This document shows, piece by piece, positions 2,859 through 42,106 of a stretch of 64,000 bases of DNA. The DNA comes from Chthoniobacterales bacterium (GTDB lineage Bacteria; Verrucomicrobiota; Verrucomicrobiia; Chthoniobacterales; UBA6821), in contig JAPJNA010000048.1 of the NCBI GenBank assembly GCA_026461395.1, positions 29,300-93,299 of the forward strand, in the 5' to 3' direction. The notes under the pieces are model-generated. The model searched no databases. It had not been told where the DNA came from and saw only the letters and a program-made list of their open reading frames with translations. The translations under genes and the position numbers were made by a program. Positions within the stretch are counted from its first letter, which is position 1. Every line of letters begins with the position of its first letter.

Positions 2859-2864
2859 GCCCCC

Positions 2865-14765: not shown

Positions 14766-16028
14766 CTAGATCATATGCCCGAGCTTCTTCTTCTTCGTAG
14801 AGAGATAGCGCGCGTTGTGCCGGTTGGGCTCAGAGCTGATAGTGACACGTTCGATGATCTCCATGCCGTAACCTTCAAGCCCAACGACCTTTCTAGGGTT
14901 ATTCGTGAGAAGACGAATCTTGGTGACTCCGAGATCAGCTAGGATCTGGGCGCCCGTTCCGTAATCACGGAGGTCGGCCGGGTAGCCGAGGCGCTCGTTT
15001 GCCTCGACGGTATCGAGTCCTTCTTCCTGAAGCTTATAAGCATGGATCTTTGCCGGCAGTCCGATCCCCCTGCCCTCCTGACGCATGTAGACAAGGACGC
15101 CATGCCCGCTCTCGGCTATCTGAGCCAATGCACGGTGTAACTGGCTACCGCAATCACAACGGCGAGAACCGAAGACGTCGCCTGTGAGGCATTCACTGTG
15201 GACGCGCACAAGTGCAGGCTTCTTGGGATCGATAGGTCCCTTCACCAGGGCCAGGTGATGATGGTTATCCACCTCGGCTCGATAGAGGAACATCTTGAAA
15301 TCACCAAAATCCGTCGGCATCTCGATCTCCTGTTCCCTACGGACGAGCTTCTCGCTCTTACGGCGGTAGGCGATGAGATCTCTGATCGAGCAGATCCTGA
15401 GACCATGCTTCTTCTTGAACTTCAAGAGATCTGGCAGGCGCGCCATTGAACCGTCCTCATTCAGGATCTCGCAAATGACACCCGATGGGTCGAGTCCCGC
15501 AAGTCGTGCCAAGTCGACTCCCGCCTCGGTGTGACCGGCCCGTTTGAGGACTCCCCCCTCCGCGGCCTGAAGTGGGAAAAGGTGTCCCGGTTGGCGGAGA
15601 TCCTTCGAGCTAGCTGTGGGATTTGCCAAAACCTTGATCGTCGCCGCGCGGTCGCGGGCGCTGATGCCGGTGGTTGTGCCGTGGGAGGCGTCGACCGAGA
15701 CGGTGAAGTCGGTGGCGTGGAGTTCCCGATTATGAGCCACCATGCGCTGGAGTCCCAGATGGGCCGCCCGATCCTCGGTGATGGGAACACAGATGAGTCC
15801 CCTCCCGTGGGTCGCCATGAAATTCACTGCCTGTGGCGTGACCTTGGAGGCAGCCATGACGAGATCACCTTCATTCTCACGATCCTCGTCATCGGTGACG
15901 ATGACCATGCGCCCCCTGCGGATCTCGTCGATCACATCGGCAATGGAATCAAAGGCAGAGGATTTGATGCCTTTGTTGAAAACTCTTTTTTTAGGAGCTT
16001 TTCCTGGCTTCACAGGCGATTTTTTCAT
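14766..16028 (-). CDS. ribBA: bifunctional 3,4-dihydroxy-2-butanone-4-phosphate synthase / GTP cyclohydrolase II
   Basis: 420 aa. RibB part [12 protein letters not shown] and RibA part [21 protein letters not shown]. Confidence 0.9.
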
Positions 16029-17188
16029 GCAAGGGAGGGGGTATCTTGAAGCATGGCCGGATCAAGGGTGGTGCGTCGCGCGATCCATCCGCCACCGATA
16101 ACGCGATCGCCGTCATAGAAGACGGCGGCTTGTCCCGGGGTGACGGCACGCAGAGGCTGGAGGGGGCGGATAACGGCGGTATCATTCTCCCCTGCGGTCA
16201 CTTCGGCCAAGTCTCCCGAGTGACCATGGCGGACTTTCACCGAAAGTCTCCGTGGGGTTGAGGGTGCTTCTCCATGCCAATTGGTCCGATTGACAAGGAA
16301 CTCCTCGCAAAGCAAGTCCTCCTCCCCTCCCAGGACGACACGGCCGCTTGAGGCGTCGATATCGATGACATACCGAGGAGTTCCTGCCCCTCCTGGAAGA
16401 CCTTTGCGCTGACCGATCGTGAAGAGTTCTATGCCATCATGCGGCCCGATGTGATTGCCCTGCATGTCGTAAAAACCGCCCGGCTGAAACGTCTCGCCGC
16501 GATCTGTGAAACGATCTTTGAGGAAGGCCTTGTAATCCTTGCCCGGCACGAAGCAGATCTCCTGACTATCCTCCTTGTCGGCGACCTTGAGGCCCAGCTT
16601 GCGGGCGATGCTCCGGATCTCCTCTTTGGTGAGGGAACCGAGAGGGAAAAGAGCTCGTGCGAGCTGCTCCCGTCGTAGACTGAAGAGGAAGTAGGACTGA
16701 TCCTTCTTGGGATCGAGTCCTTTACGGAGGATTGGGGCCCTCTGCTTGTCATCTTTATCCTCGGGATGCTCAACGGAGGCATAATGGCCCGTGGCTATGT
16801 AGGCCGCGCCCAGGGCGGTCGCCTTGTCCCAGAGGTTGCCAAACTTCAGCTTCTCGTTGCACATGACACAGGGGTTCGGTGTACGCCCGGCCTTATACTC
16901 ATCGGCAAAGTAATCGATTACCAACCGCTCGAAGGGCACGGCTTCATCGATTACGTAATGGGGCACTCCCAGCGCATGGGCCACGCCACGGGCATCCGCG
17001 ATCGCTTGGGGGCCGCAGCACTTGTCCTCCGCGCGGGACATGCAATCCTGCGGCCAGAGCTTCATGGTGACGCCGATGACCTCCCATCCCTGCTCCTTCA
17101 GCAGATAGGCAGCAACGCTGGAGTCCACTCCTCCGCTCATTCCAACGACGACGCGTCGGGATTCGGATGATGGTGCAGGTGTTGTCAT
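16025..17188 (-). CDS. mnmA: tRNA 2-thiouridine(34) synthase
   Basis: 387 aa. PP-loop [14 protein letters not shown] and the conserved catalytic Cys region (NPCVMCN). Confidence 0.9.
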
Positions 17189-17287: not shown

Positions 17288-17320
17288 CAAAAAAAAGGCC
17301 CCGGAGTTTCCTCCGGGGCC
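17288..17320 (-). terminator. intrinsic terminator downstream of the OM barrel gene
   Basis: GGCCCCGGAG-TTTC-CTCCGGGGCC hairpin at 17297-17320, followed on the minus strand by a run of 8 T (plus-strand A-run 17289-17296). Confidence 0.7.
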
Positions 17321-17349
17321 TTTTGAAGTGTTCTTATTCTAAGAGATTC

Positions 17350-20896: not shown

Positions 20897-22606
20897 TTAC
20901 TGGGACGATTTGCGCGCCCACCGCTCGGTGTCGGCATACAGGATGCATTCCCCGTCAATCGGCAGCGGAGTGAAGCTCTTAAGCAGAAAGTCATTAATAT
21001 TCACCGTCCGCATGATGACGGGGCCCCAGTCTTTGTAAGAACCCTTGAGGAGAGAGATAAAGGACTCACCTGCAGAGACTGGAGTTAGATAGAGGCCGAC
21101 GATCGGCGAGCCAAGGCTTCCGAAATCGGAGATCTGGTTGAACTGCCGGACTGTTTCCGGAATCAGCAGGCACTTCCTGTTGGCGTACCAGGCAACTGCC
21201 CAAGGCATGTCCGAGGAGAGGAGTTCTTGGGGCTTGAACCAGTTTTGAAGGACCGAAATGAAGGGGGGCACATAAGGGGGCCACTGGATGCGTGCCTGCT
21301 GTCCGGTTAGCAGGGTGAGGATCATCGGGATTCCGGAAATTAGGAAAATTGCGGTCAGGAAGGCGATCCGGAGCGCCTTCAGGCTGATATTAAGCCTGTT
21401 CCAAAGCACCAGGATAAAAGCCATTCCGAAGAGGATGAAAATGGGGATAAAAATCACGTGCAGCTGGTTGCCCGACACTGCTCCCTTCACACCGAAGAGT
21501 GCCATGCCCAGTGTGAGCCCGATCCACATGATCAGAATCACCCATCGCCAGACCGCGGCGACTGGATTCTTGAACGGATGAAGAAGCGAGATAAAGAAGG
21601 CGACGACGGTGATGTTGAGTCCGAGGTACTCCCAGAGATGCGATGCCTGATCGAGAAGGCCAGACTTGATCTTGGTTGCCATGCCTCCGCCCAGGGTCAG
21701 TCCGGTATTCACTCCACGCATGACAGACTGCTCTGTAACGCCCGCTCCCGCCAATGCCATGTAGATAGAGAGGCCGAATGGGTTGCCGCAGACAGAATAG
21801 TTGCGAAGCAGCCAGGGAAGCACTGTCAGCAGATAAATGAGAAAGGGGACGAGAAAGGTCACAACCCGCGACCGGAATGCAAAAAGGCAGAAAGCCAAAA
21901 ATCCCGGAACCAAGAAGAAGGTGACTCCATGGGTCAAGGACATCAGGCCGAGACTGAAGGCAGCGCCCCCGAGCCAGGCATAGACTGTGAGTCGGTTCTC
22001 TTCTTCCTCCGCATTCAGGGCCTTCAGTGCACAGAGACAGACTAATCCGAATAGCACGATCAGGAGAAGCTGGGGCAGTCCTGCCAGGGCATACTGCCAG
22101 AGGAGGTCGGTCACGAGAAGGAGTCCCGCTCCGATCAGGGCTAGTGTCCTATCAAAGAGTAGCTTGCCAACAAAATACCAGACCAGAACGCCAAGCAGGA
22201 GAAAGACGATGCCGAGTGCCGCAATGGCCCTGTCGCCCATGCTAAGTATGTCCGTCGATTCCATCGCAATTCTTTTCTTTACCGTAAACAGAGCCGCCGC
22301 CTCTGCTAGCGGGTAAAGAGGGGCACTGTAGAAATCAGGGAAATTGCCGGAGGGAACCTTGCGGGCCGTGTCCGTGAGTTGACGAATGGCCAGCGGGCGG
22401 ATGTAGCGGGTCGTGAACCCCTCCCCCGAGATGAGTGACCGAGCAATCTGGGCCTGATCCATCGCCTGCTCAGTGCCCAGTCCCTTGAACTGCATCAAGA
22501 AATAAATCGTGCAGAGCCCTATCACGACGGCGGCAATCATGCCGATCTTGAGTACCTGGGCAATAAGGCCGGAATCGATGTCACGTACTGTTTCCTGGAG
22601 TGCCAT
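20897..22606 (-). CDS. polytopic membrane protein, possibly a GT-C (ArnT/PMT-like) glycosyltransferase
   Basis: 569 aa with more than 10 TM helices, an early periplasmic loop (AMDQAQIARSLISGEGFTT) and a ~130-aa C-terminal soluble domain. The family assignment is weak. Confidence 0.4.
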   Translation of the reverse strand: MALQETVRDIDSGLIAQVLKIGMIAAVVIGLCTIYFLMQFKGLGTEQAMDQAQIARSLISGEGFTTRYIRPLAIRQLTDTARKVPSGNFPDFYSAPLYPLAEAAALFTVKKRIAMESTDILSMGDRAIAALGIVFLLLGVLVWYFVGKLLFDRTLALIGAGLLLVTDLLWQYALAGLPQLLLIVLFGLVCLCALKALNAEEEENRLTVYAWLGGAAFSLGLMSLTHGVTFFLVPGFLAFCLFAFRSRVVTFLVPFLIYLLTVLPWLLRNYSVCGNPFGLSIYMALAGAGVTEQSVMRGVNTGLTLGGGMATKIKSGLLDQASHLWEYLGLNITVVAFFISLLHPFKNPVAAVWRWVILIMWIGLTLGMALFGVKGAVSGNQLHVIFIPIFILFGMAFILVLWNRLNISLKALRIAFLTAIFLISGIPMILTLLTGQQARIQWPPYVPPFISVLQNWFKPQELLSSDMPWAVAWYANRKCLLIPETVRQFNQISDFGSLGSPIVGLYLTPVSAGESFISLLKGSYKDWGPVIMRTVNINDFLLKSFTPLPIDGECILYADTERWARKSSQ

Positions 22607-22628: not shown

Positions 22629-23996
22629 TTAGGATTTCGTGATGCCAAATTGAGAGAGATGACGATGGAGGGTGCGACGGCTAATGCCGAGCTTTTTTGC
22701 CGCCATTGTGCGATTCCCAGCGCACTCTTCCAGGGCTTTGTGAATCGTCGCGGCCTCAATTCTGGCAAGGTTCATTTCATTCTCCCCGGAAGCAGATCCT
22801 GCGAGAACGTGAAGAGATGAAGGGAGATCTCCCAGCTTGAGTTCACTACCATTTCCTAACACCACGGCATGCTCTACAGCGGCGCGAAGTTCACGGATAT
22901 TACCGGGCCATGCATGAGTCTCAAGCGCAGCAATGGCGTCGCGAGTGAAGAGCCTCTCAGGCTTGTCATGCTCCTTGGCCATTTCCTTGAGAAAGGCACT
23001 CGTGAGCAGGGGAATATCTTCCGGGTGACTCCGTAGAGGAGGCATCATGAGAGGCACCACATTCAACCGGAAGAACAGATCTTCACGGAATGTTCCGTCG
23101 CTCACCATGGCCGCCAGATCCTTGTTGGTTGCAGCGATCAGTCGCACTTCGGAGTTCAGGGTCTGGTTGCCCCCGACTCTCTCGAAGCTCTTCTCACCAA
23201 GCACTCGCAGAATCTTGACCTGAACGGTGGGGTCGATTTCGCCGATCTCATCAAGGAAAAGAGTGCCGCCGGCAGCCTGTTCGAAGCGCCCGATCCTGCG
23301 CTCCCCTGCGCCGGTGAAGGCACCCTTCTCATGGCCGAAGAGCTCGCTCTCCAGAAGCTGGGGGGAAAGTGAGGCGCAATGGACGGCCACAAACGGCTTC
23401 TCAGCCCGGTTGCTCAGGGCATGGATCGCCTGAGCAGCAACTTCCTTACCCGTTCCGCTCTCCCCTTGAATGAGAACGGTAGCCTTGCTGGGTGCCACCT
23501 GCCTGATGGTCTCGAAGACCCTTTCCATCACCGGGGAGCGACCGATCATTCTGTCGGGTGTCCGCGTTTTGCGCACTTCCTGACGGAGTTCTAGATTCTC
23601 CGCTTGCATGGTTCTTTCGCGTAGGGCACGCCGGATCAGCATTTCCAAACGGTCGATATTCACCGGCTTGGTCACAAAATCATAGGCCCCCTGCTTCATG
23701 GCTTCCACGGCGGTATCTACCGATCCGTAAGCTGTCATCATAATGCAGATCGGCGGATCGGAGCGCTTCAGAATCTTCTTCATCAGATCCATGCCGTTGT
23801 CGGCGCCGATCTTCAGATCGGTGAGGACCAGATCGGGAGGGTCTGCCTCCATCAAGGCCAAAGCCCCTGCTTCATCAGCCGCCAGTGAGACATCAAAGCG
23901 CTCTTCCAGCACGGCTCTCAACCCATCGCGCGTGTTCTTTTCATCGTCGACAATCAGGATGGTCTGCTTCATAGAAGGAGAGACAGATTGTCGCAA
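22629..23996 (-). CDS. sigma54-dependent response regulator (NtrC/AtoC family)
   Basis: 455 aa. REC domain (ILIVDDE ... LVLTDLKI), AAA+ domain with GESGTGKE and the GAFTGA loop, and a C-terminal Fis-type HTH (AAKKLGISRRTLHRHL). Confidence 0.9.
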   Translation of the reverse strand: MRQSVSPSMKQTILIVDDEKNTRDGLRAVLEERFDVSLAADEAGALALMEADPPDLVLTDLKIGADNGMDLMKKILKRSDPPICIMMTAYGSVDTAVEAMKQGAYDFVTKPVNIDRLEMLIRRALRERTMQAENLELRQEVRKTRTPDRMIGRSPVMERVFETIRQVAPSKATVLIQGESGTGKEVAAQAIHALSNRAEKPFVAVHCASLSPQLLESELFGHEKGAFTGAGERRIGRFEQAAGGTLFLDEIGEIDPTVQVKILRVLGEKSFERVGGNQTLNSEVRLIAATNKDLAAMVSDGTFREDLFFRLNVVPLMMPPLRSHPEDIPLLTSAFLKEMAKEHDKPERLFTRDAIAALETHAWPGNIRELRAAVEHAVVLGNGSELKLGDLPSSLHVLAGSASGENEMNLARIEAATIHKALEECAGNRTMAAKKLGISRRTLHRHLSQFGITKS

Positions 23997-25247: not shown

Positions 25248-28200
25248 TTAGGTGCGGGTCTCGCGGATCTGACGTCTCAGGATGAAGAAAAGGACCACGA
25301 AGATCGCCCAACTGGAGAGGATCATGACGGCGGAGTTGAACCAAAGCAGGGGGATGGAGACGCCGCAGTATTGCTTCATCGGCCCGAAAAAGACATTCGG
25401 GTGCCGGTTGTCACGATAGTCCGCCTGCTCCATCTCCGCCTTGGAGACCAGATCGAGTACCTTCTGGTTGGTGTAGAGCTGTTCGGCAGTGACGCCTCCT
25501 TCACTCCCGACGATTTCCTCGCGCTTCAACGTAGCCCCCGCGATCACCCGGTCAATGCGGGTCATCCTCTTGGCGAGTTCATCCGGATTGGTTGCCTGCA
25601 GACCGCTCAGGATCGCCAGAAGATCCTTGAGGTCGTCGAGACGATCTTCCTGGGCATCGGTCGGCTTCTTGATCGCTGCGAGTTGGTAGATTTGGCGCTG
25701 GATACGCGCCTGCCGAAGGGCCAGGGGATTGAGCTTTGCCTGGGCAAAGACGATCCCCTCATACGACCAGCGCATCGGCATGAACTCGCAGATCATCGGC
25801 ACCTGCAGATCGCTTCTGGGTTCCATGGCCGTTTCGGGGTGCCGGTTGAACCACTCATGGATCGAATGGATGAAATCCAGATTACGGTTCATCTCTTCAT
25901 ATTTGATCAGGGCACCCCCAAGGATGATCTGGGGGATCAAGACGACGGGAATGATATTCACGGCTGTCTTCCCCTCCCGGGCGAGCGAGGAAATCAGAAG
26001 GCCCAGCGCGATGCCGCTAAACGCGGTGAGGAACATTGCAAGAAACTCGACCCAATAAAATCCTCGGATGGAGACCATCCAGTCGCCGATCAGCGTGAAG
26101 AGGGCGCACTGAGCCACGGCGAAGAGGCCAAGCGTGATCGCTTTTGCCAGTAGGTAGTAGCCGATGCGGACATTCAGATTTCTTTCCCGGAGAAGGACGG
26201 GCCGGTCGCGAAGGATGTCGTCGACGCTGTTGGTGAGTCCCAAGAACATCGCCACCACGAGGGAAAGGAACAGGTAGGTCGGGATGTGGAAGGCCGAGGC
26301 GAAGTCGTAATGTTTGCTCTCCGAGTAGCGGAGGACAGATCCGATCAGGAAGGCAAGCATCGGCGCCTCCACTAGCGTGGTGAGGAGATTGGCCCGGTTA
26401 CGCAGCTTGCTGATGAAAGACCGCTGAAGCAGCACAAGGAACTGCCCCAGTTCGTCGCGCCAGCGAAGGCTCTCCCATCCGGAAGGTCGCTGTGTAAGGC
26501 TACTCCTTGACTCAGGACCAGCTGGGACGGGAGTTCGCGAGGAGGCCGGTTGCTGGACCTCCTTCATCAGGCGATAGGCCTCGAACTTGTCACGCCAGTA
26601 TTCCGGAGAGAAGCGACGGGCGGGGACAAGCTGTCCTCGGTTGTTCTCCTCGTAGATGAGCTCGCCTCCTAAGTCACGCAGAGGTGTCTCCAGCACGTCG
26701 AAGACAAACTCCGGACGAGTCGTGCCGCAGGCTTGGCATCCCCCGAGTTCGGTGCCGAAGAGTTGCTCGTGCTCCGCCTCGGCGAAGTACGCAAGCATCT
26801 CCGTGGGTGTGCCGAAGAAGACCAGCTTTCCTCCCTTGTCCAGGAGCAGGGCCTTCTGGAACATCTGGAAGACCTTTGAGGTCGGCTGGTGGATCGTGAC
26901 CAGGACGATCTTGTTATGGGCCATGCCGCGAATGATCTCGATGACATGCTCGGAATCCTTGGAGGAGAGGCCGCTGGTCGGTTCGTCGAAGAGATAGATA
27001 TCGGCCGTGCTGACCATATCGAGGCCGATATTGAGGCGCTTGCGTTCGCCTCCGCTCAGGATTTTCTTACTGGTTCCTCCCACGACCTCCTTGCGGCGCT
27101 CGTTCAGGCCGAGCTCGGCAAGCTTGCTGTCGATACGACGCTGACGTTCGCGCCGCGAAAGATGGGGTGCGCGGATGGCCGCCGCAAAGCGGAGATTTTC
27201 CTCGATCGTCAACTGCTCGTCAAAGGCGTCGTACTGGGGAATGTAGGTGATGTACTGAAGTAGCGCATCGAGATTCCGGTAGAGGGAGCGCTGGTTGAGC
27301 TGCACCTCACCAGCCACCGGCGGGAACTGGCCCGCCAGAGCGCGGAGCAGGGTGCTCTTGCCGCAGCCGCTTGCTCCCATAACGCAGACCATCTCGCCGC
27401 GATCCATCGAGAAATTGAGGTTATCGAGGGCCGTGTCACCACTCCGGAAGCGGCAGACAAGATCGCGCACGTCGAGAGTTCGGATGATGTTCCGCTCCTC
27501 CTCGATAATCCTGTCGGTGAAGTTACAGCGGAGTACCTGGCCCGCATCGATCCGGATGGTGTCCCCATCGATGAGATCCATAGCCCCGCGTACGGGAAGC
27601 CCCCTTACCACGATCGGCCTGTCCGCCTGAAGTACCTCCACGCGGCCCTTTTTTTCCTGATAATCGCAGGTGATCCGTAGCGTTACCTCGCCGCCGATTC
27701 CGGGAGAAATCAGAATGTCATCGTCGTCCAGTCGGCTCGGGTTATTCGAAGCGATGTACTCAGTCTTGGAGCCCTTCAGCTCGAAACGGCCACCGAAAGA
27801 CCCGACGCGCCGCTTCAGATCCTCGAGGTCGAGCTCCCCACCGTCGCGAAAGAAGATCTTTTCCGAGAGTTGGGCAACAACCGTTGTCCCCTTGCGTAGC
27901 GGAGTACCCTGCAGGGTGGCCCGAAGGTCTTGAAGGGCGGTGACATTCACCTTCAGGCCGAAGGCGATCTCCAAGTCGCTGTCCCGGCTACGCGATTTCT
28001 CAAGCCGGACCTCCTCGTTGTTGATCGCCACAAAGATGTGAGGAAGCGTCACATTGCGCTTCGCATTGAAGTAAAAGATCAGATCTTGGCTGGTGATCAC
28101 CTGCTCGCCCACCAACACGCGCTGCCCCGGGTAGATCCGGCAAAACTCTCCTGGCTTCAGCAGGCGACCCTGGACGATCAGGCTCTTGCCAGAGAGGTTT

Positions 28201-28919
28201 TTGATAATGATTAGATCGTGGTAGCAGTAGGCCAGAAGCTTTTCATCACCTTTGAAGTCCCTTAGCTCCACATCGCATGTTGCCGGATCGCCGAAGGAAA
28301 GAGCCTCAAGCGGCGAAGTGCCGTCGTGGAAAAACTCCGCATCGGCCTGCTCGTTGGCATTGAGTTGGTAGACGATATCGATGGCCTGCGCCGCCATGCC
28401 GAGACGCCCCATGAAGTCATGGTAAGCCGCCACCTGCTCCGCCTTCATTCCCGAACGGGTGATCAGATCATAGAGCTGCACGCCGAGCAGGATCTTGCTG
28501 TCATCGCTCAGCTCTGCGGAGAGCTTCGTCGCCATGGCTCCCAGATCCTGTTGCTGCTCGAGGGCCTGGCGGAAGAGCTTGCGGAGTTCGGAATAGACCG
28601 CCTCGGGATAGTCGTAGCGCAGGAATCCGAGGCTCGAATCGATTTCCTCCTCCAGCATTTCCCCATCGACCCGGGTGAAGGCCGCAAGAACCTTAATAAG
28701 CGTGGGAAGAAGGTTGGCGCTCTCGGCGATGGTCTGCGGACGTCGTTGCAGGCGACGCCAGCGCTTGGCCGCTGAACGCTGTAATCGGGAAGCTCCCCTC
28801 AGGATGCTATCGATTACGACCACTCCCCGGCGCGGAGGCTGGGAACCATCTTGCCCAGCTGGATACGGATCCGATCCGGGCGTTTCTGCTCCTCCTGATA
28901 TCTGTGGATTGGGATCCAT
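25248..28919 (-). CDS. 1223-aa multidomain ABC transporter: TerB-like segment, FHA-like modules, ABC ATPase and ABC-2 (ABCG-type) permease
   Basis: Walker A GASGCGKST, signature LSGGERKRLNIG and Walker B IYLFDEPTSGLS, followed by an ABC-2 type membrane domain. The N-terminal half contains VDGEMLEEEID (TerB-like) and beta-rich modules ending in NG/GD patterns (LIDGDTIRIDAGQVLRCNF). Confidence 0.8.
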   Translation of the reverse strand: MDPNPQISGGAETPGSDPYPAGQDGSQPPRRGVVVIDSILRGASRLQRSAAKRWRRLQRRPQTIAESANLLPTLIKVLAAFTRVDGEMLEEEIDSSLGFLRYDYPEAVYSELRKLFRQALEQQQDLGAMATKLSAELSDDSKILLGVQLYDLITRSGMKAEQVAAYHDFMGRLGMAAQAIDIVYQLNANEQADAEFFHDGTSPLEALSFGDPATCDVELRDFKGDEKLLAYCYHDLIIIKNLSGKSLIVQGRLLKPGEFCRIYPGQRVLVGEQVITSQDLIFYFNAKRNVTLPHIFVAINNEEVRLEKSRSRDSDLEIAFGLKVNVTALQDLRATLQGTPLRKGTTVVAQLSEKIFFRDGGELDLEDLKRRVGSFGGRFELKGSKTEYIASNNPSRLDDDDILISPGIGGEVTLRITCDYQEKKGRVEVLQADRPIVVRGLPVRGAMDLIDGDTIRIDAGQVLRCNFTDRIIEEERNIIRTLDVRDLVCRFRSGDTALDNLNFSMDRGEMVCVMGASGCGKSTLLRALAGQFPPVAGEVQLNQRSLYRNLDALLQYITYIPQYDAFDEQLTIEENLRFAAAIRAPHLSRRERQRRIDSKLAELGLNERRKEVVGGTSKKILSGGERKRLNIGLDMVSTADIYLFDEPTSGLSSKDSEHVIEIIRGMAHNKIVLVTIHQPTSKVFQMFQKALLLDKGGKLVFFGTPTEMLAYFAEAEHEQLFGTELGGCQACGTTRPEFVFDVLETPLRDLGGELIYEENNRGQLVPARRFSPEYWRDKFEAYRLMKEVQQPASSRTPVPAGPESRSSLTQRPSGWESLRWRDELGQFLVLLQRSFISKLRNRANLLTTLVEAPMLAFLIGSVLRYSESKHYDFASAFHIPTYLFLSLVVAMFLGLTNSVDDILRDRPVLLRERNLNVRIGYYLLAKAITLGLFAVAQCALFTLIGDWMVSIRGFYWVEFLAMFLTAFSGIALGLLISSLAREGKTAVNIIPVVLIPQIILGGALIKYEEMNRNLDFIHSIHEWFNRHPETAMEPRSDLQVPMICEFMPMRWSYEGIVFAQAKLNPLALRQARIQRQIYQLAAIKKPTDAQEDRLDDLKDLLAILSGLQATNPDELAKRMTRIDRVIAGATLKREEIVGSEGGVTAEQLYTNQKVLDLVSKAEMEQADYRDNRHPNVFFGPMKQYCGVSIPLLWFNSAVMILSSWAIFVVLFFILRRQIRETRT

Positions 28920-31076: not shown

Positions 31077-31403
31077 TTAACAGGCGCACCGAAGCCTGCG
31101 GTTGTTGGAGCTGGAGATGAGATCGATGCAGCGGAAGAACTCCGTGAAGCAGGGGCAGGCGATCTGGTAAAAGACCTGCAGGCCACGCTTCTCGCAGACA
31201 AGGAGTCCGGCTTTTTTCATGATTGCCAGGTGCTTGGAGAGAGTCGTCACGTCGCAACCTGCCATTTCCGTGAGATCGTTCACGCAATGCTCACCTTGCA
31301 TCAGGGCTTCCATAATCAGGAGGCGCGTGGGATGGGCCATCGCCTTCACGATGGAGGCGCGGACCGTAGCATTGGATTTCAGCTTCTGAAGTTTTGGAGG
31401 CAT
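31077..31403 (-). CDS. arsR: ArsR/SmtB-family metalloregulator with a C-terminal Cys cluster
   Basis: 108 aa. Winged-helix core AMAHPTRLLIMEAL ... VTTLSKHLAIMKKAGLL. The canonical ELCVCDL site is reduced to EHCVNDL. The C-terminus carries CPC ... C ... CAC. Confidence 0.85.
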   Translation of the reverse strand: MPPKLQKLKSNATVRASIVKAMAHPTRLLIMEALMQGEHCVNDLTEMAGCDVTTLSKHLAIMKKAGLLVCEKRGLQVFYQIACPCFTEFFRCIDLISSSNNRRLRCAC

Positions 31404-31586: not shown

Positions 31587-33362
31587 TCAGTCCAAATCGC
31601 GCGAGATATCAATTCTGCTCTCCCCGAAGATCCCGTGATGGGCTTCGGCTTCCTTGCAGAGGGAGGCATAGAGTCCACCCGCAGCAAGGAGCGTCTCGTG
31701 ATTGCCTCTCTCAACAATGCGTCCCCTCTCCAGTACCAGGATCTGGTCGGCATGGCGGACGGTCGAGAGCCGGTGGGCGATGACAAAGCTGGTGCGGCCC
31801 TCCAGCAAATGGGCTAGTGCCTCCTGGATCAGACGTTCCGTCGTGTTGTCCACACTGGCAGTCGCCTCGTCGAGGACAAGGATCGGCGGGTTCTTCAGCA
31901 GGGCGCGCGCGATGGAGAGCCGCTGTTTCTCACCGACACTAAGCTTAACGCCGCGTTCGCCGAGTTGCGTGTGGAGCCCCTTAGGAAGACGGCGTATGAA
32001 GGCCTCTGCATTCGCGGCGGCTAACGCCGTCCACATTTCCTCATCAGTGGCATCAGGTTTTGCAATCAGCAGATTATCGGATGTGGTGCCGTTGAAGAGG
32101 AAGCTCTCCTGCGTCACCATGGCGACGGAGCGGCGGAGTTCGCTAAGAGGGATCTCACGGATCGGACGCCCATCCAGCAAGATCTCTCCGGAGCTGAGCT
32201 CGTAGAATCTGCTGAGCAGATGGACAAGAGAAGTCTTCCCTGCTCCGGTGGGTCCCACCAGCGCGATCATCTCGCCTGGCTTGGCATGGAGAGAGATGTC
32301 ATGGAGGACAGCTGTCCCGACCTGATACTCAAACCCCACAGACTCGTAACGTACGTCACCCTTCAGGGAGATTACCTCAGAATTCGAAGTAGGATTCTTC
32401 CAGCCCTCTTCCAATGGGGCATCCAAAATTGAAAAGACCCGTTCGCTTGCGGCTCGGCCCGCCTGAAGTAACTGGTTGAGGGAATGGAGGCGTCCGACTG
32501 GTTCGTAGAGATAGCGTGCCAGCAGGAGGAAGGCGACCAGGACACTCAACTCCATCGTTCCATGGAGAACCTGTAGACCTCCTACCGCAAGGATGAGGAT
32601 CATTCCCGCGTTCCCAAGGAAGTTCATTGTCGGGCTGTAGATCGCCCAATAGCGCATCACGATGAGAGAGGCTTTTTTGAGGGCTTCGCTTGCTGCATTG
32701 AATCGGGCATGTTCCCTCTCCTCGGTGGCGTAGGTCTTGATCTGGCGGATCCCGTCGAGGTTATCGTGGAGAAGGGAGTTCAGGGCCGAGGTAGCCTTGC
32801 GGGTGGTCCGGTAGCGCTTTCCGGCAGTTAGCGTGTAGAAGAGCGCCCCGAGAGCCAGGAAGGGAACAGGCGTCAAGGCAGCCAGCATCAGGTCCATGCT
32901 GTAATGGGCCATGAGGACAAGGACGATGGCGATCTGCAGCAGAGCTACCGTTCCCTGCTCGATGCCGTCGATCAGAACGCGCTCCACGTTGGTCACATCC
33001 TCCACGAGTCGGGTCATGATGTCGCCCGTCGCGCGGTTGTCGAACCACGGGAGGGGCAGCATCTGGATCCGGGCATAGAGATCACTCCGGAGGTCAAAGA
33101 TCACCCGTTGCTCGAAGTGATTATTCACCAGGATACGGAGGCAGTTCAGGAGATCCTGGGCGAAGAAAGCTGCTAAACCCATTGCGATCAGAGGAACCAG
33201 CTTTTCAGGATGATGCTGTTTGAGAACGACCTCAATGACCTGCTGGGTGACGGCAGGAAAAACCGCCACCATCAGCGTGCCAACGATCGCACAGAACATC
33301 GTGGCCGCCGCCATCCAAGGATAGCGGGCCGTGTAACCGAAAACTCGTAGCAAAATTCGCAT
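31587..33362 (-). CDS. ABC exporter, fused permease/ATPase (MsbA/multidrug type)
   Basis: 591 aa. Six-TM type I exporter domain plus an NBD with GPTGAGKTS, LSVGEKQRLSIARAL, LVLDEATASVD and AHRLST. Confidence 0.85.
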   Translation of the reverse strand: MRILLRVFGYTARYPWMAAATMFCAIVGTLMVAVFPAVTQQVIEVVLKQHHPEKLVPLIAMGLAAFFAQDLLNCLRILVNNHFEQRVIFDLRSDLYARIQMLPLPWFDNRATGDIMTRLVEDVTNVERVLIDGIEQGTVALLQIAIVLVLMAHYSMDLMLAALTPVPFLALGALFYTLTAGKRYRTTRKATSALNSLLHDNLDGIRQIKTYATEEREHARFNAASEALKKASLIVMRYWAIYSPTMNFLGNAGMILILAVGGLQVLHGTMELSVLVAFLLLARYLYEPVGRLHSLNQLLQAGRAASERVFSILDAPLEEGWKNPTSNSEVISLKGDVRYESVGFEYQVGTAVLHDISLHAKPGEMIALVGPTGAGKTSLVHLLSRFYELSSGEILLDGRPIREIPLSELRRSVAMVTQESFLFNGTTSDNLLIAKPDATDEEMWTALAAANAEAFIRRLPKGLHTQLGERGVKLSVGEKQRLSIARALLKNPPILVLDEATASVDNTTERLIQEALAHLLEGRTSFVIAHRLSTVRHADQILVLERGRIVERGNHETLLAAGGLYASLCKEAEAHHGIFGESRIDISRDLD

Positions 33363-33624: not shown

Positions 33625-35498
<1,874 letters not shown>

Positions 35499-35623: not shown

Positions 35624-36859
35624 TCAATAACGACTTATGACTAAAGAGGAATTATGACCACCAAAGCCGAGGGCATTAATCATAACACTCTTTATTTGGG
35701 CTTCTCTCGGCTGGTTGGCAACGTGGTTCAACGCGAAGTGCTTATCCGGACTGAAAAGGTTGATCGTCGGGGGGATCAGTGCCTGTTCTATTGATTTAAC
35801 AGCGCCAATCAGTTCTATCGCACCGGAGGCTCCACACAAATGACCTGTCATGGATTTTAGAGCTGTTACGGGTGTCGAGTGGTGACCAAAGAGAGATTGA
35901 ATGGCGCTGGCCTCGGCGCGATCTCCAGCTTTTGTTGAAGTAGCATGAGCAATGACGTAGGAGAGTTCCGAAGGTTGGCACTTCGCCTGCGCTAGGGCGG
36001 CATTCATCGATGCGGCTACACCCTTCCCATCAGCACTTGGCTGAGTGATATGATAGGCGTCCGTCGTTAGCCCATGACCGATGATCTCGGCCAAAATCAT
36101 AGCGCCACGCCGACGTGCATGAGACTCCTCCTCAAGAACAAGAGCTCCTGCACCCTCCGAGATGACAAAGCCGTCGCGTTCAAGATCAAAGGGCCGGGAA
36201 GCTTGTTGCGGTGAGGAATTGCGCTGGCTCAGCGCTTTCATGGCACAAAAACCACCGACCATCAGTTCACAAATCGGGGCTTCACTACCCCCGGTGAGTA
36301 TGAAGTCGGCCTCTCCATTTCTAATCAGTCGCCAGGCCTGCCCAATTGCCTCACTTGCAGAAGCGCACGCGGCTCCTACAGAGAAATTTGGCCCCTCTAG
36401 ACCCAACTCTATGGCCACCATAGCCGCAGCCATATTGGTTCGAAGCATAGGAATCAAAAAAGGGGAGAGTTTACTCGGGCCTTTCTCAACTAGAATCTGG
36501 AATTGCTTCGACAGGGTCGTGATTCCGCCGTTGGAGGCTCCAAAAACAACACCCCCTCGATTCGGATTGAACGTGCTGAGATTCTTCAATCCGGAATGAA
36601 TAAAGGCCTGACTAGCGGCAGCAACAGCGAACTGACTGGAACGATCCGCACGCAATCCCCTCTTCGGATGAGAAAAATGGGGAGCTGGGTTGAAATCCTT
36701 TACTTCACCGGCAATCTGGGATGTGAGGCGGGATGGATCAAAAGCAGTGATCTTATCAATACCACTTCTTCCGTGAATCAGGCCTTCCCAATAGGAATCA
36801 ACCGTATTGCCGAGCGGCGTCACGGCTCCCATACCTGTAATGACAACGCGTAAACCCAT
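35624..36859 (-). CDS. fabF: beta-ketoacyl-ACP synthase II-like condensing enzyme
   Basis: 411 aa. Active-site Cys block GAACASASEA and His blocks AHATST and GHLCGASG. It is isolated from other fab genes. Confidence 0.8.
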   Translation of the reverse strand: MGLRVVITGMGAVTPLGNTVDSYWEGLIHGRSGIDKITAFDPSRLTSQIAGEVKDFNPAPHFSHPKRGLRADRSSQFAVAAASQAFIHSGLKNLSTFNPNRGGVVFGASNGGITTLSKQFQILVEKGPSKLSPFLIPMLRTNMAAAMVAIELGLEGPNFSVGAACASASEAIGQAWRLIRNGEADFILTGGSEAPICELMVGGFCAMKALSQRNSSPQQASRPFDLERDGFVISEGAGALVLEEESHARRRGAMILAEIIGHGLTTDAYHITQPSADGKGVAASMNAALAQAKCQPSELSYVIAHATSTKAGDRAEASAIQSLFGHHSTPVTALKSMTGHLCGASGAIELIGAVKSIEQALIPPTINLFSPDKHFALNHVANQPREAQIKSVMINALGFGGHNSSLVISRY

Positions 36860-36972
36860 TAATCAAAAAAGTTCATCTTAAGGTTGATCCGAAAGTCCAC
36901 GCATGGTTTCTCTGCATCAAAAGGGCAAAAGATCGTGAATGATTATGAAACACTCGCTTATGGAAAATGATT

Positions 36973-36988
36973 TGGATAAAAAATCGCA
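36973..36988 (+). promoter_or_regulatory. weak sigma54-like -24/-12 element upstream of amt copy 2
   Basis: TGGATA-AAAAA-TCGCA. GG (36974-36975) and GC (36986-36987) are at canonical spacing, but the flanks are poor and the element is only ~15 nt from ATG 37003. Confidence 0.3.
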
Positions 36989-37002
36989 ATCTCTTTTCCA
37001 TC

Positions 37003-38884
<1,882 letters not shown>

Positions 38885-38981
38885 TCCTGAGGAACGAGCA
38901 GACTCCGATGCTCGATGAGAACTGGATGACGGTAGGGCAGCCTCCTATCGTTTGGAAGATGGTCCAGATAGTTGTTTGAGA

Positions 38982-39004
38982 ATATCAAACGCTACGTTTG
39001 ATAT
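38982..39004. promoter_or_regulatory. perfect 10-bp inverted repeat in the AT-rich region upstream of the ABC/HlyD pair
   Basis: ATATCAAACG-CTA-CGTTTGATAT. A third TATCAAA half-site follows at about 39025-39031 (GGGTATCAAATC). Confidence 0.4.
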
Positions 39005-39053
39005 AATCTAGTAGATAAAAATGGGTATCAAATCATAAGATACACGATGTCAC

Positions 39054-40679
39054 ATGATTCACTCGCGTCATCATCCCGATCAAGGCCCGTGGACGCGCCT
39101 TAAAAGCGCACTGGATCTCGATCCCCGTGACGTGGGGATGATCCTGGTTTTCGCCCTTTGCGTTGGACTGCTCTCCATCGCGGCTCCTGTGGCGATCGAG
39201 ACTCTGGTGAACACTGTCGCGTTTGGCGTCCTGCTCTGGCCAGTGATTGCCCTGGCTCTGGTGATGCTGACACTGCTCCTCATCTCGGCCTCGCTCAAGT
39301 CACTCCAGTTCCTTGTCGCGGAGTATCTCCAACGGCGCCTCTTTGTCCGTTACGCCGAGAAGTTCTCCGCACATTTCTCGCGCGCCGAGATCTCAAGCTT
39401 TGAGGGCCGCAATGCGGGCGAGCTTGCGGATCGTTTCTTCGAGGTCTCCTCGGTTCAGAAAGCCTTGGCTGGCCTCTTAGTTGACGGTGTTAGCATCGTG
39501 ATGCTCACGATCGTCGGCCTCATCCTCCTCTCCTGCTATCACCCCTATCTGCTGAGTTTCGCCCTGATCCTTGTGGTTGCGGTGGTTGTGGTGACCATTG
39601 TATTTGGGAGAGGTGGTGTCTCCTCCAGTATTGCGGAGAGTTATGCAAAATTCGACCTCGCTGGATGGATCGGCGAAATCGCCCGCTCTCCCTCCCTCTT
39701 CCGTGCCGGAGCGATGCAGGATCTCGCCCTCAACCGAGCCCGCACACATACAGCCGACTATATTGTCGCGAGGAAATCCCACTTCCGCATCGTCTGGCGG
39801 CAGACACTCTTTGTGATTTTCTTGGAAGCCATCGCAAGCTCCCTCCTCCTGGGTCTCGGCGGGTGGCTGGTGATCAACCGGCAACTCACGCTCGGCCAAC
39901 TTGTTGCTTCCGAACTGATCGTGACTCTGATCCTGGCGGCTCTGGCCAAGACCGGAAAACATCTCGAGTCCTTCTATGACCTTGAGGCATCGCTTGATAA
40001 GCTCGGGGTCATCGACAGCTTCACCTTGGAGCCCGAAGGAGGGGAAGTCCTGCTAGCATCCGGAAAGCCCCTCTCCGTTAAGGCAAATTGCCCCAGCCCC
40101 GCAGGGGAGATCTCGTTGGATGCGCCCTCCGGTTCTAAGATCGCCCTGCTCGGTGCTCCTGGCAGCGGCAAGTCTCGGTTCATGGAAACCCTCTCCCTCC
40201 TGCGCGCTCCGGAGGGGTCGCGGGTTACCTTTGACGGGATCAGTTCCCAGGCCTTGGATCGGGCCGCGGCCCGCAGACTGATTGCCAACGCCGGACGCGG
40301 GGAGGTGTTTTCCGGGACGATCGTTGAGAACCTCCGTGCCGGCAACGCGGAGATCGGCGTCGAGGAGATCCGTGAAGCCCTCAAGGATGCGGGTCTATCC
40401 GCCCGCATTGCCTCGCTCCCTTTGGGGATGGCCACACCTCTCTCCTCCACGGGATGGCCGCTCTCCACCTCCGAGTCAGTCCTGCTGGGCATCGCACGAG
40501 CCATCTTGGCTAAACCCCGCCTCTTGCTGCTGGACGGAACACTCGATCTCCTGGATCCCGCTCTGCATTCCGAGCTGATCGCAAAACTCTCCTCTCCGGA
40601 CGCACCCTGGACCCTGATCGTGGCCACGACCAGGCGCGATGTCGCCGAGCGCATCGGCACCACCGTCACGTTACCATGA
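39054..40679 (+). CDS. ABC exporter-type protein (TMD plus NBD) with a degenerate ATPase domain
   Basis: 541 aa with a type I exporter membrane domain. Walker A is intact (GAPGSGKS). The signature is LSTSES instead of LSGGQ, Walker B is LLLLDG (no catalytic Glu), the H-loop is IVATTRRD (no His), and the Q-loop position lacks Gln (ANAGRGEVFSGTIVENL). Confidence 0.75.
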   Translation: MIHSRHHPDQGPWTRLKSALDLDPRDVGMILVFALCVGLLSIAAPVAIETLVNTVAFGVLLWPVIALALVMLTLLLISASLKSLQFLVAEYLQRRLFVRYAEKFSAHFSRAEISSFEGRNAGELADRFFEVSSVQKALAGLLVDGVSIVMLTIVGLILLSCYHPYLLSFALILVVAVVVVTIVFGRGGVSSSIAESYAKFDLAGWIGEIARSPSLFRAGAMQDLALNRARTHTADYIVARKSHFRIVWRQTLFVIFLEAIASSLLLGLGGWLVINRQLTLGQLVASELIVTLILAALAKTGKHLESFYDLEASLDKLGVIDSFTLEPEGGEVLLASGKPLSVKANCPSPAGEISLDAPSGSKIALLGAPGSGKSRFMETLSLLRAPEGSRVTFDGISSQALDRAAARRLIANAGRGEVFSGTIVENLRAGNAEIGVEEIREALKDAGLSARIASLPLGMATPLSSTGWPLSTSESVLLGIARAILAKPRLLLLDGTLDLLDPALHSELIAKLSSPDAPWTLIVATTRRDVAERIGTTVTLP

Positions 40680-42106
40680 GCAGCAGCCAACCGCATGACG
40701 ACGGCTGTAAGCCGGCTGATCCAGTGACACGGGAGGATCTAACGCGCGCGACGGAAACCCCGCCCATTGTGCGTCAGATTTCCAAGATCGTGCTCTGGTG
40801 CATGGCCGCCTCCCCCTTTGTGCTGGCATTTGTCCCGTGGCAGCAAACTGTGCAGGGTCGCGGCACCGTGATCGCCTATTCGCCTGTCGAGCGCTCCCAA
40901 GTGCTGACGGCTCGGATTCCAGGCCAAGTGCGCAAGTGGCACGTCGTCGAGGGATCCATCGTCAAGAAAGGCGATCCTGTGGTCGACCTTGAGGACAATG
41001 ATCCGGATCTCGGCACCAGGCTGACTGCACAGTTGGAGTTTCTTAAAGGACGTCTCTTGGCCGGTAAACAGGAAGTGACGGAACTAAGTGGCGCCGCTAC
41101 GGCCACGGAGGCTGCCCGTGAATCAGCTGTTAATGCCGCCAAAGCCAATCTTGAATCAACCCGCAAGGCGATCGAGGTGGCTGATCATGTCCTCTCCAAC
41201 GCCCAGTACTCCAAGACCTTCGAGCAGACCCGTTTTGACATGATCGACAAGCTCCATTCCGGCGGAACGCTGGGGGCGATCGAGAGCAAGCTTTCACGCG
41301 AGGAGGCCAAGCTGCGCATTGACCGCGCCTCCATCGACGTGAGACGAGCAGCCGCAGAGTTGGATCGCGCGAAGGCCGCCTACCTGACTCAAGAGGCACA
41401 AGTCCTTCAGACGGATGCCGCTGGAATCTCTTCGATTGCGGTAGCGAGAAGCAATTTCCGGAAGGGAGAGCAGGCGCTTTTCACCACGGAACGTGAGGTG
41501 CAGGACATCGAGAACCGGGTGGAGCGCTTCAAGTCGCGGCACGTGGTGGCTCCCTGCGATGGAGTCGTCTTCCGAGTTCACGCCAATGTGGGCGGTGGTG
41601 GACAGTACCTCAAGGAAGGGGACGAACTCTGCACGATCATTCCCGACACAAAGGACCGGGTCGTCGAGCTCACGCTCGACGGACGCGATGCTCCTCTGGT
41701 TCTCGCTTACGCTCATCGTAAGGGATCTCTGCCACAGGCACGCCTTCAGTTTGAGGGGTGGCCGGCCATCCTCTTCTCCGGATTCCCCGATGTGTCGATC
41801 GGCACCTTCGGAGGAAAAGTCCGGCAGATTGATCAGGCTAGTGGCGCGACCGGTGGATTCCGAATCCTAATCGAACCAGAGCACCATGTTCCGGGTGATG
41901 ACTGGCCCGACTCTAATTTCTTACGACAAGGAAATCAGGTGGTGGGTTGGGTCTTTCTCAATCGGGTGCCGCTTGGATACGAGATTTGGCGTCGTCTGAA
42001 CGGCTTTCCGCCAGTCCTCCCTCCCACTTCCAAGGAGAAGAAATCCGGCTCTCCGGACAACAAGGAAGAGGAGAAAGCGAAAGCGCCGAAGATCAAGGTT
42101 GGCTGA
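40676..42106 (+). CDS. HlyD-family membrane fusion / secretion protein
   Basis: 476 aa. N-terminal TM (IVLWCMAASPFVLAFVPW), lipoyl-like hairpin (GQVRKWHVVEGSIVKKGDPVVDLED), long coiled coil and a beta-barrel C-terminus. It overlaps the ABC gene by 4 nt. Confidence 0.8.
   Translation: MSSSQPHDDGCKPADPVTREDLTRATETPPIVRQISKIVLWCMAASPFVLAFVPWQQTVQGRGTVIAYSPVERSQVLTARIPGQVRKWHVVEGSIVKKGDPVVDLEDNDPDLGTRLTAQLEFLKGRLLAGKQEVTELSGAATATEAARESAVNAAKANLESTRKAIEVADHVLSNAQYSKTFEQTRFDMIDKLHSGGTLGAIESKLSREEAKLRIDRASIDVRRAAAELDRAKAAYLTQEAQVLQTDAAGISSIAVARSNFRKGEQALFTTEREVQDIENRVERFKSRHVVAPCDGVVFRVHANVGGGGQYLKEGDELCTIIPDTKDRVVELTLDGRDAPLVLAYAHRKGSLPQARLQFEGWPAILFSGFPDVSIGTFGGKVRQIDQASGATGGFRILIEPEHHVPGDDWPDSNFLRQGNQVVGWVFLNRVPLGYEIWRRLNGFPPVLPPTSKEKKSGSPDNKEEEKAKAPKIKVG

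Follow-up and report, generated by a model that had tools for sequence, protein, structure and literature searches.

Can an exporter of the ATP-binding cassette (ABC) fold still serve a cell after the residues that hydrolyze ATP have been lost? The question is raised by a two-gene module in a 64,000-nucleotide stretch of DNA from a Chthoniobacterales bacterium (GenBank assembly GCA_026461395.1, contig JAPJNA010000048.1, positions 29,300 to 93,299 of the forward strand). The whole stretch is called the window here, and its own numbering is used throughout. The module consists of two genes:

39054-40679, plus strand: ABC-fold half-transporter gene ("pseudo-ABC"), 541 aa, with a transmembrane domain (TMD) and a nucleotide-binding domain (NBD) whose ATP-site motifs are predicted to be catalytically degenerate
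40676-42106, plus strand: HlyD-type membrane-fusion (periplasmic adaptor) gene, 476 aa, with an N-terminal transmembrane helix, translationally coupled to the ABC gene

A preliminary description regarded the pair as a candidate for a non-hydrolytic or partner-dependent secretion or efflux module. The results presented here indicate that the system is a tripartite exporter resembling a type I secretion system (T1SS), with a predicted pseudo-ATPase as its ABC component, and that the window holds the two-gene version of Chthoniobacterales. On balance, and with only a little more confidence than doubt, the pair is read as the inner-membrane and periplasmic part of an envelope-spanning, T1SS-like exporter that would not be run on ATP hydrolysis.

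The ATP sites and their conservation

In Pfam, the 541-residue protein scores 38.7 bits for ABC_membrane (cutoff 28) and 47.3 bits for ABC_tran (cutoff 25), the latter over residues 352-494. No NCBIfam family model reached its cutoff with the protein (best 147 bits versus 853); the nearest models are those of T1SS and bacteriocin exporters, all well under cutoff. An AlphaFold2 model, made from an input alignment of 77 homologs, had a mean predicted local distance difference test score (pLDDT) of 79. The top PDB matches of this model in Foldseek were 8dck_A, the HlyB chain of the HlyB/D complex (TM-score 0.81), and PCAT1 (8vox_A, 0.80). With HlyB and PCAT1 as the best structural matches, the modeled protein is of the type IV exporter fold, as in type I secretion and bacteriocin exporters. 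An exact-sequence look-up of the protein in public assemblies gave no match. The domains and ATP-site motifs are as follows:

39135-40028, plus strand: TMD, residues 28-325, six long helices (from the AlphaFold2 model)
40071-40676, plus strand: NBD fold, residues 340-541, catalytic residues gone, under purifying selection
Cys346, plus strand: A-loop position, canonical aromatic residue lost
40152-40175, plus strand: Walker A GAPGSGKS, residues 367-374, intact relative to GxxGxGK[ST]
40296-40298, plus strand: Q-loop position, Arg415 where Gln is expected from alignment to P-glycoprotein and a canonical ABC
40461-40478, plus strand: signature LSTSES, residues 470-475, in place of LSGGQ
40521-40556, plus strand: Walker B LLLLDG followed by D-loop-like TLDLLD, catalytic Glu replaced by Gly495, Asp498 and Asp501 conserved
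40629-40631, plus strand: H-loop position, Thr526 for His in the MAFFT alignment against canonical FVIAHRLS

The motif register was taken from three alignments that agree, namely HMMER against P-glycoprotein, MAFFT with the canonical ABC protein of the same window, and BLASTP. The substitutions first described in the Q-loop, signature, Walker B and H-loop are correctly registered, and Walker A is kept as was stated. Alignment of the NBD revealed no displaced motif and added the A-loop loss (Cys346) to the original list. Thr526 comes right after the beta-strand 520-525 of the AlphaFold2 model. Five elements are gone together: the A-loop aromatic residue, the Q-loop Gln, the Gly-Gly-Gln of the signature, the catalytic Glu and the H-loop His. 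From its sequence, the protein is predicted not to couple transport to ATP hydrolysis. The D-loop Asp shows little or no variation in the family, and the same is true of ENxRxG after the Q-loop, a segment in contact with the coupling helices of the TMD.

The preliminary description had asked whether homologs share the degenerate motifs. They do across the homologs examined, and no canonical copies that overturn the claim were found. In a search of 5.8 billion proteins the best 120 matches were examined (363-582 aa, mostly 513-553 aa). These homologs have 52-96% identity to the 541-residue protein and a common dead-motif pattern: most have an intact Walker A, with LS[ST][NS]E[LI] as signature and LLL[IL]DG as Walker B, and the H-loop region is Thr-[Ala/Thr/Ser]-Arg, where His is missing from the switch position. 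At the Q-loop position they have Gln or Arg/Lys, with Gln retained in some Planctomycetota relatives. At least 540 species genomes, scanned as one genome per species, encode a relative of the protein. Among the matches listed, the closest (79-90% identity) belong to Spartobacteria/Chthoniobacterales (Verrucomicrobiota) and so place the window in that lineage, and the remaining relatives are Planctomycetota or metagenome-assembled genomes of doubtful label.

The same pattern is seen in 88 genomic loci (cited here by L numbers, with positions within a locus after a colon), which represent Chthoniobacterales and several Planctomycetota groups including Pirellulales, Planctomycetaceae and Fimbriiglobus. 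The position of the catalytic Glu is Gly nearly everywhere and D-E is found in two loci only (L076 and L084); H-loop His and LSGGQ occur in none. That the dead motifs are common across these loci, together with the same operon, points to a loss of hydrolysis before the sampled Chthoniobacterales and Planctomycetota lineages diverged. The predicted loss is ancient and family-wide.

Walker A was tallied in 89 sequences, the window protein plus the 88 loci. It is intact (GxxGxGK[ST]) in 67 of the 89 and disrupted in about a quarter. The motif is shorter by two residues with GK[ST] kept in 12 of 89 sequences (e.g. GP--RGKT, in L041, L043, L045, L047-L049, L051, L053, L054 and L061), the lysine is lost in 7 of 89 (e.g. 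AN--AGST, in L052 and L055-L060), and 2 of 89 have other variants. The subclades with an altered P-loop still carry the operon of ABC, HlyD and outer-membrane factor (OMF) genes. A Walker A that is shortened or lacks its Lys in a retained operon argues that nucleotide binding is dispensable in those lineages. L052 and L056 derive from one metagenome-assembled genome, so a single genome can hold two such modules.

Could the protein nonetheless be an ATPase, an ordinary but divergent T1SS or efflux pump that hydrolyzes ATP, possibly slowly, via unconventional residues? In favor of this, the window's lineage has kept Walker A and the Walker B Asp intact, Asp498 is invariant with further acidic residues near the site, and the two distant members L076 and L084 have re-acquired D-E. 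Against this stand the joint loss of five ATP-site elements and the retention of the same operon in subclades without a P-loop, and a missing Walker B Glu alone is described as the hallmark of a hydrolysis-deficient site in PMC7544095. Residual hydrolysis of this kind is judged distinctly unlikely.

Loss of so many catalytic motifs would also be expected of a decaying or recently inactivated gene copy. However, the reading frame is intact, and each of eight Chthoniobacterales orthologs has exactly 541 codons with no stops. The ratio of nonsynonymous to synonymous substitution rates (dN/dS) among the eight is 0.06-0.3 for the NBD and 0.04-0.24 for the TMD; these values, well under 1, are approximate, with dS near saturation in several ortholog pairs. 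The same substitutions recur in hundreds of genomes of two phyla. Conservation, selection and shared substitutions exclude a pseudogene, and the chance that this copy is decaying is close to nil. The degenerate NBD is, as far as sequence can tell, a conserved non-canonical domain under purifying selection.

The TMD is the best conserved part of the protein. Its family alignment has dense invariant columns, and in each comparison between clades the TMD is more similar than the NBD (e.g. identities of 61% and 43% for Chthoniobacterales against the nearer Planctomycetota clade). The canonical ABC protein of the window, compared with the dead-NBD family, has the usual opposite pattern (TMD 17.5%, NBD 27% identity).

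Subunits and the path across the envelope

It was stated originally that no second subunit is present to complete a consensus ATP site. This holds for adjacency. It does not hold for the window, which contains a canonical exporter:

31587-33362, minus strand: MsbA-like canonical ABC exporter, 5.7 kb away on the opposite strand

This exporter has a Walker B DE, an H-loop His and an unusual LSVGE signature, and scores 435 bits against the MsbA equivalog cutoff of 602. It is syntenic upstream of amtB-glnK in Chthoniobacterales relatives only; in the window amtB (36967-38502) and glnK (38546-38884) are the upstream neighbors of the ABC-HlyD pair.

The 541-residue protein could be imagined as one half of a heterodimer with an unlinked canonical ABC half-transporter such as the MsbA-like protein, giving one working site. 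Asymmetric ABC exporters, in which one site is degenerate, occur frequently (PMC7756269), and 5.7 kb upstream there is a canonical candidate that has Walker B DE and the H-loop His and is syntenic in Chthoniobacterales relatives. In the known asymmetric exporters, one chain has the degenerate Walker B/H-loop and the other the degenerate signature, and one consensus site survives (PMC7756269). Here Walker B/H-loop and signature are degenerate in one chain, so any partner would leave degenerate elements in both composite sites and none, canonical ones included, could restore a consensus site. In known heterodimers the two genes lie side by side in one orientation, whereas the MsbA-like gene belongs to a separate transcription unit on the opposite strand. 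The MsbA-like gene is also absent from the Planctomycetota loci. None of 92 related loci has a further ABC exporter in the operon, and none was linked in the 88 loci analyzed. A module with its own adaptor and OMF, and subclades without even a P-loop, likewise argue against a partner-dependent pump, which was one of the two options first offered and is here considered unlikely.

The absence of a linked partner and the presence of both dead composite-site halves in one chain favor a homodimer. The earlier remark that a homodimer would have two non-canonical sites is the most coherent reading of the protein, both site halves being degenerate in the same chain. We infer a homodimer with two identical dead sites, a self-consistent reading of the sequence.

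The adaptor matches Pfam HlyD_3 (43.6 bits, cutoff 22.2), HlyD_D23 and Biotin_lipoyl_2. Its gene overlaps the ABC gene by four nucleotides (ATGA), as was noted at the outset. The linkage is conserved across the family: the HlyD gene directly follows the ABC gene in every locus long enough to show both, and the 4-nt overlap recurs in the relatives whose gene calls were checked. Neighborhood genes in the relatives' loci come from simple open reading frame (ORF) calls. The C-terminal domain of the adaptor is strongly conserved. The adaptor has no sequence-detectable relative in the PDB, and no recognizable RLS TolC-binding motif was found by regular expression.

The third component is seen in Planctomycetota, where the unit is ABC, then HlyD, then a TolC-like protein of about 560-590 aa. 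This protein passes the Pfam OEP model (TolC family) at 44-75 bits versus a cutoff of 22. With a TolC-like gene directly downstream in Planctomycetota, the family is therefore tripartite. The window agrees with the first description in having no OMF, C39 peptidase or cargo gene adjacent to the pair. It is possible, by analogy with E. coli, that the OMF of the window's genome is encoded elsewhere.

The conserved architecture also bears on whether the module moves anything at all. The ABC-fold protein, adaptor and OMF might form a static trans-envelope scaffold, tether or sensor. Every catalytic motif is lost, and in some clades the P-loop too; no cargo gene is linked in the loci clustered; and the module is associated with stress-type regulators. 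All three would suit a scaffold. However, the TMD is the best conserved part, including the TM5-TM6 'GGWLVI...LTLGQLVA' region typical of exporters, and the conserved NBD-TMD coupling elements and retained tripartite architecture suit a moving transporter over a strut. A non-transport role is improbable on this evidence, and transport remains the preferred reading.

The neighbor families that recur in the 88 loci are LysR and clade-restricted glycosyltransferases (GT4 upstream, GT10 downstream). The latter recurrence is attributed to the shared ancestry of closely related genomes. In one Pirellulales subgroup, a GT4 glycosyltransferase lies upstream of the module and a GT10 fucosyltransferase downstream (L003:8591-9892 and 15836-16825; also L013, L018-L022, L027, L032, L033 and L074). 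In the window's lineage galE is always near the module. The proximity of GT4, GT10 and galE could reflect a link to glycoconjugates or simply inherited synteny.

Upstream half-sites and their probable regulator

The region upstream of the ABC gene contains a repeated half-site in alternating orientation:

38974-39032, plus strand: array of GTTTGAT/ATCAAAC half-sites in alternating orientation, a phylogenetic footprint
38974-38990: half-sites 1 and 2, a T-N11-A dyad (LysR-type box), GTTTGAGAATATCAAAC
38982-39004, either strand: perfect palindrome ATATCAAACG-CTA-CGTTTGATAT, half-sites 2 and 3 of the array
about 39007-39019: downstream element of the array, a second site about three helical turns on

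The preliminary description had pointed to the perfect palindrome and to a third TATCAAA half-site. Both are present. The arms of the palindrome (38982-38991 and 38995-39004) are 10 nt each, 100% complementary, with a 3-nt spacer, and the third TATCAAA is at 39026-39032. The 64-kb window has two perfect palindromes with arms of at least 10 nt, versus 0.375 expected from Markov-1 simulations. The other is AAAAAAAAGGCCCCGGAG-TTTC-CTCCGGGGCCTTTT at 17288-17323, a GC-rich hairpin that is probably a bidirectional intrinsic terminator since it is flanked by an A-run and a T-run.

The footprint consists of four half-sites (GTTTGAT, ATCAAAC, GTTTGAT, ATCAAAC) and is found in six of eight Chthoniobacterales relatives, or six of the seven whose glnK-ABC spacers were aligned, while the flanks diverge. 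The clustered array occurs once in the window; single 9-mers of the half-site are at chance level genome-wide, and just the clustered array stands out. The T-N11-A box with a second site downstream is the predicted layout of a LysR-type promoter and lies upstream of the ABC gene.

A similar arrangement is found beside lysR genes of relatives. In L010 and L088, an NhaR-related lysR has immediately next to it GTTTGAg-N3-ATCAAAC and, some 30 bp downstream of that, ATCTAtTGGATCAA. In L090 and L001, the arrangement is partly present in a divergent region facing dabB or amtB. The window array region and the lysR-dabB regions of these four loci have 65% mean column identity. The NhaR-related LysR proteins encoded 2-7 kb upstream in relatives score 136-138 bits, below the NhaR cutoff of 219. 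In Planctomycetota of both clades, genes for NhaR-like LysR proteins are divergent from the module and score 233-250 bits, above the same cutoff; they include those in L055:2480-2662, L056:4340-4521, L051, L085, L043 and L077. These divergent regions between lysR and the module have a conserved dyad of their own, resembling ATCGA-T6-TCGAT, beside the lysR start.

The array was originally taken for a dedicated repressor site. Its recurrence beside an NhaR-like lysR in relatives argues against this, as it is common to lysR-adjacent regions. It most likely serves as the operator of a LysR-type regulator that is shared with other operons; regulators of this type are typically activators. E. coli NhaR is described in PMC6307784 as a high-salt, high-pH regulator of nhaA, osmC and pgaA. 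In Gimesia alba (CP036269), the module is near ectABC for ectoine synthesis, a TRAP transporter and a MarR gene (L091:4376-6637 and 1397-4327). The NhaR-like regulators and the ectABC neighborhood of Gimesia alba are hints, and not evidence, of a role related to salt or osmotic stress.

The region upstream of the ABC gene has a GC content of 0.39-0.41, against a window mean of 0.57. It had been called the most AT-rich stretch of the window. It is AT-rich, but ranks as the third-lowest 150-nt stretch in GC, after those at 36851 and 31371; the intergenic stretches 36840-36970 and 31360-31400 have GC of 0.35-0.37 over 150 nt. A riboswitch or leader RNA upstream of the ABC gene was considered and rejected (no Rfam match; fold no better than shuffles, z = -1.84). 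In the glnK-ABC intergenic region, a scan detected neither a sigma-70 promoter of standard spacing on the plus strand nor a terminator behind glnK. In L008, the closest relative among the genomes (90% identity), galE immediately precedes the ABC gene, with no half-site array (L008:7800-8007). The L008 pair has been rearranged relative to the window, and its regulation may differ.

Proposed mechanism, related systems and neighboring genes

The mechanism that best joins these results is as follows. The 541-residue protein would most likely be a homodimer of the HlyB/PCAT1-type fold with two catalytically dead composite nucleotide sites. The HlyD-type adaptor would link this inner-membrane homodimer to a TolC-like outer-membrane channel, which is encoded in the operon in Planctomycetota and would have to be unlinked in this Chthoniobacterales genome. 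The NBD would be kept as a structural and regulatory module, as its retained TMD-coupling and dimer-contact elements suggest, and the intact P-loop of the window's lineage may bind ATP without hydrolysis. Transport might be driven or gated by nucleotide binding and release, by the substrate's own gradient, or by proton or sodium motive force. Expression would probably be under an NhaR-related LysR-type regulator acting via the conserved upstream half-site array.

Several points weigh against this proposal. Homodimerization is assumed. Since the window's lineage retains an intact P-loop and the Walker B Asp, a role may be left to ATP or another nucleotide, and the sequence may be compatible with weak or unconventional ATPase activity. 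No OMF gene adjoins the pair in the window or in any Chthoniobacterales locus, and no TolC/OEP-like ORF is detectable within the 64-kb window. The absence of an OMF beside the pair is specific to the Chthoniobacterales lineage, and the version found there might work differently. Clustering of all neighbors in the 88 loci gave no recurrent cargo or accessory gene. Finally, of the loci with 2.5 kb or more of upstream sequence, just 8 of 59 have an adjacent LysR gene, to which several shorter loci can be added, and no LysR gene lies within the 64-kb window.

A broader proposal is more tentative and is put forward as a conjecture. The family may comprise ancient and widespread TolC-coupled exporters that use the ABC scaffold without ATP hydrolysis, and in some cases without nucleotide binding, with a TMD run by an ion-motive force or substrate gradient and the NBD kept as a fossil whose only part is that of a clamp, for dimerization or for regulation. 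If this is true, the family would be the first tripartite system with the ABC fold but not ABC energetics, and a natural experiment on the non-catalytic functions of the NBD.

The nearest known systems are the HlyB-HlyD-TolC T1SS and the PCAT exporters, which share the type IV exporter fold, the coupled HlyD-type adaptor and, with the Planctomycetota operon, the OMF. HlyB and PCAT1 are active ATPases, whereas here all catalytic ATP-site motifs are lost. The T1SS models of NCBIfam score the ABC protein far below cutoff (HlyB 108 versus 726, PrtD 87 versus 510, LssB 101 versus 693), and the T1SS membrane-fusion protein model type_I_hlyD scores the adaptor 46 versus 209. Unlike these systems, the protein of the window lacks an N-terminal domain and has no RTX or GG-leader cargo gene linked to it, and in this lineage the OMF is not linked either.

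For the ABC protein, the highest NCBIfam scores are those of models of the NHLP/Nif11 bacteriocin export cassette (NHLM_micro_ABC1 and ABC2, 147 and 132 bits), and the HlyD model of this cassette hits the adaptor with 35.5 bits. The cutoffs, among the models TIGR03794, TIGR03796 and TIGR03797, are 853 and 709 bits for the ABC protein and 156 for the adaptor. Assignment to this cassette was rejected; there is one ABC gene instead of two, no C39 peptidase domain and no precursor peptides nearby.

The heterodimeric exporters TM287/288, TmrAB, BmrCD and LmrCD have the same fold, with catalytic Glu and H-loop His replaced at a site that possibly binds ATP. They always keep one consensus site, distribute the degenerate elements over a pair of neighboring genes, and lack both adaptor and OMF. 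The present family carries all degenerate elements in one gene and has no linked partner.

Two further systems offer analogies for the mechanism. SbmA/BacA proteins have an ABC-exporter-like TMD without an NBD and are proton-driven. They exemplify a TMD fold that works without ATP hydrolysis, as the present family seems to need, but they lack any NBD, are importers, and work without adaptor or OMF. The 541-residue protein has no Pfam match to the SbmA/BacA family at E up to 0.1. CFTR is an ABC protein turned channel, with gating by nucleotide binding and one degenerate site. An ABC exporter scaffold in which nucleotide binding gates the pathway could serve as a model for a binding-gated mechanism; CFTR, however, keeps one hydrolytic site that ends gating, and is eukaryotic, single-chain and not tripartite.

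A T1SS-related module has been described before from the Planctomycetes-Verrucomicrobia-Chlamydiae superphylum. The HlyD/Peptidase_M50/SecA_DEAD module consists of a SecA_DEAD ATPase and M50-like membrane proteins with no ABC-fold protein (Kamneva et al. 2015, PMC4452313). It resembles the present module in its T1SS relationship, its occurrence in Planctomycetes and Verrucomicrobia and its non-canonical energizer, but none of its genes is found here. In the literature covered, which was incomplete and included a comprehensive 2021 review on tripartite systems as well as one on degenerate sites, no T1SS-type or homodimeric ABC exporter with both sites degenerate was found.

ABC exporters are defined by ATP-driven transport, and the known exceptions keep at least one working site or lack the NBD altogether. 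In the present family, the NBD has been under selection for a very long time with its catalytic elements gone and in full partnership with an adaptor and outer-membrane channel. If the family transports, the energy-coupling rule of T1SS-like machines has an exception, one accessible to study in cultivable Planctomycetota (for instance Gimesia); a family that does not transport would represent a trans-envelope pseudo-enzyme complex of a new kind. The annotations "HlyB" and "ABC transporter ATP-binding protein" are misleading for these proteins, and T1SS censuses based on the co-occurrence of ABC, membrane-fusion and OMF genes probably count such modules as active.

A more distant clade (40-45% identity) bears on the origin of the family. 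It includes the cultured Gimesia, Maioricimonas, Thalassoglobus and Rubinisphaera, and its proteins are annotated "HlyB" or "peptidase domain-containing ABC transporter". They have a conserved extra N-terminal domain of 150-190 aa (L062-L087, e.g. L062:7491-8045), with no meaningful sequence match in Pfam or the PDB. An AlphaFold2 model of the Gimesia alba protein P0129 (L091:10001-12190; pLDDT 71) gave full-length PCAT1 and HlyB as best Foldseek matches. These matches span 705-719 aligned columns, including the C39 or C39-like domains, versus about 560 for core-only exporters. C39 peptidases have their nucleophile Cys in the N-terminal helices. The N-terminal helices of the distant clade have no conserved Cys; conserved Cys residues are found further on, at positions 86 and 156. 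Since the N-terminal domain aligns with C39 or C39-like domains in the model, descent from HlyB-type exporters looks likely. The family looks like an offshoot of HlyB-type exporters that bore a C39-like domain and lost catalysis early, with later loss of the N-terminal domain in the window's branch.

Downstream of the pair in the window are a convergent transglutaminase-like gene, then galE and tatD. Further genes upstream are:

33625-35115, plus strand: second ammonium-transporter gene, upstream of amtB-glnK (36967-38884, plus strand)
35624-36859, minus strand: fabF-like gene between the two amtB genes

In place of this arrangement, L001, L088 and L090 have two amtB-glnK pairs, with the NhaR-related lysR and dabB-dabA (inorganic carbon uptake) between them in L001 and L088 and lysR alone in L090. 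With its SulP, carbonic anhydrase, Dab and AmtB genes, the neighborhood looks like a carbon and nitrogen acquisition island. Elsewhere in the window, a 569-aa ORF with no Pfam match (20897-22606, minus strand) adjoins a sigma-54 response regulator gene (22629-23996), and a 1223-aa fused protein with ABC_tran and ABC2_membrane domains is encoded at 25248-28919 on the minus strand.

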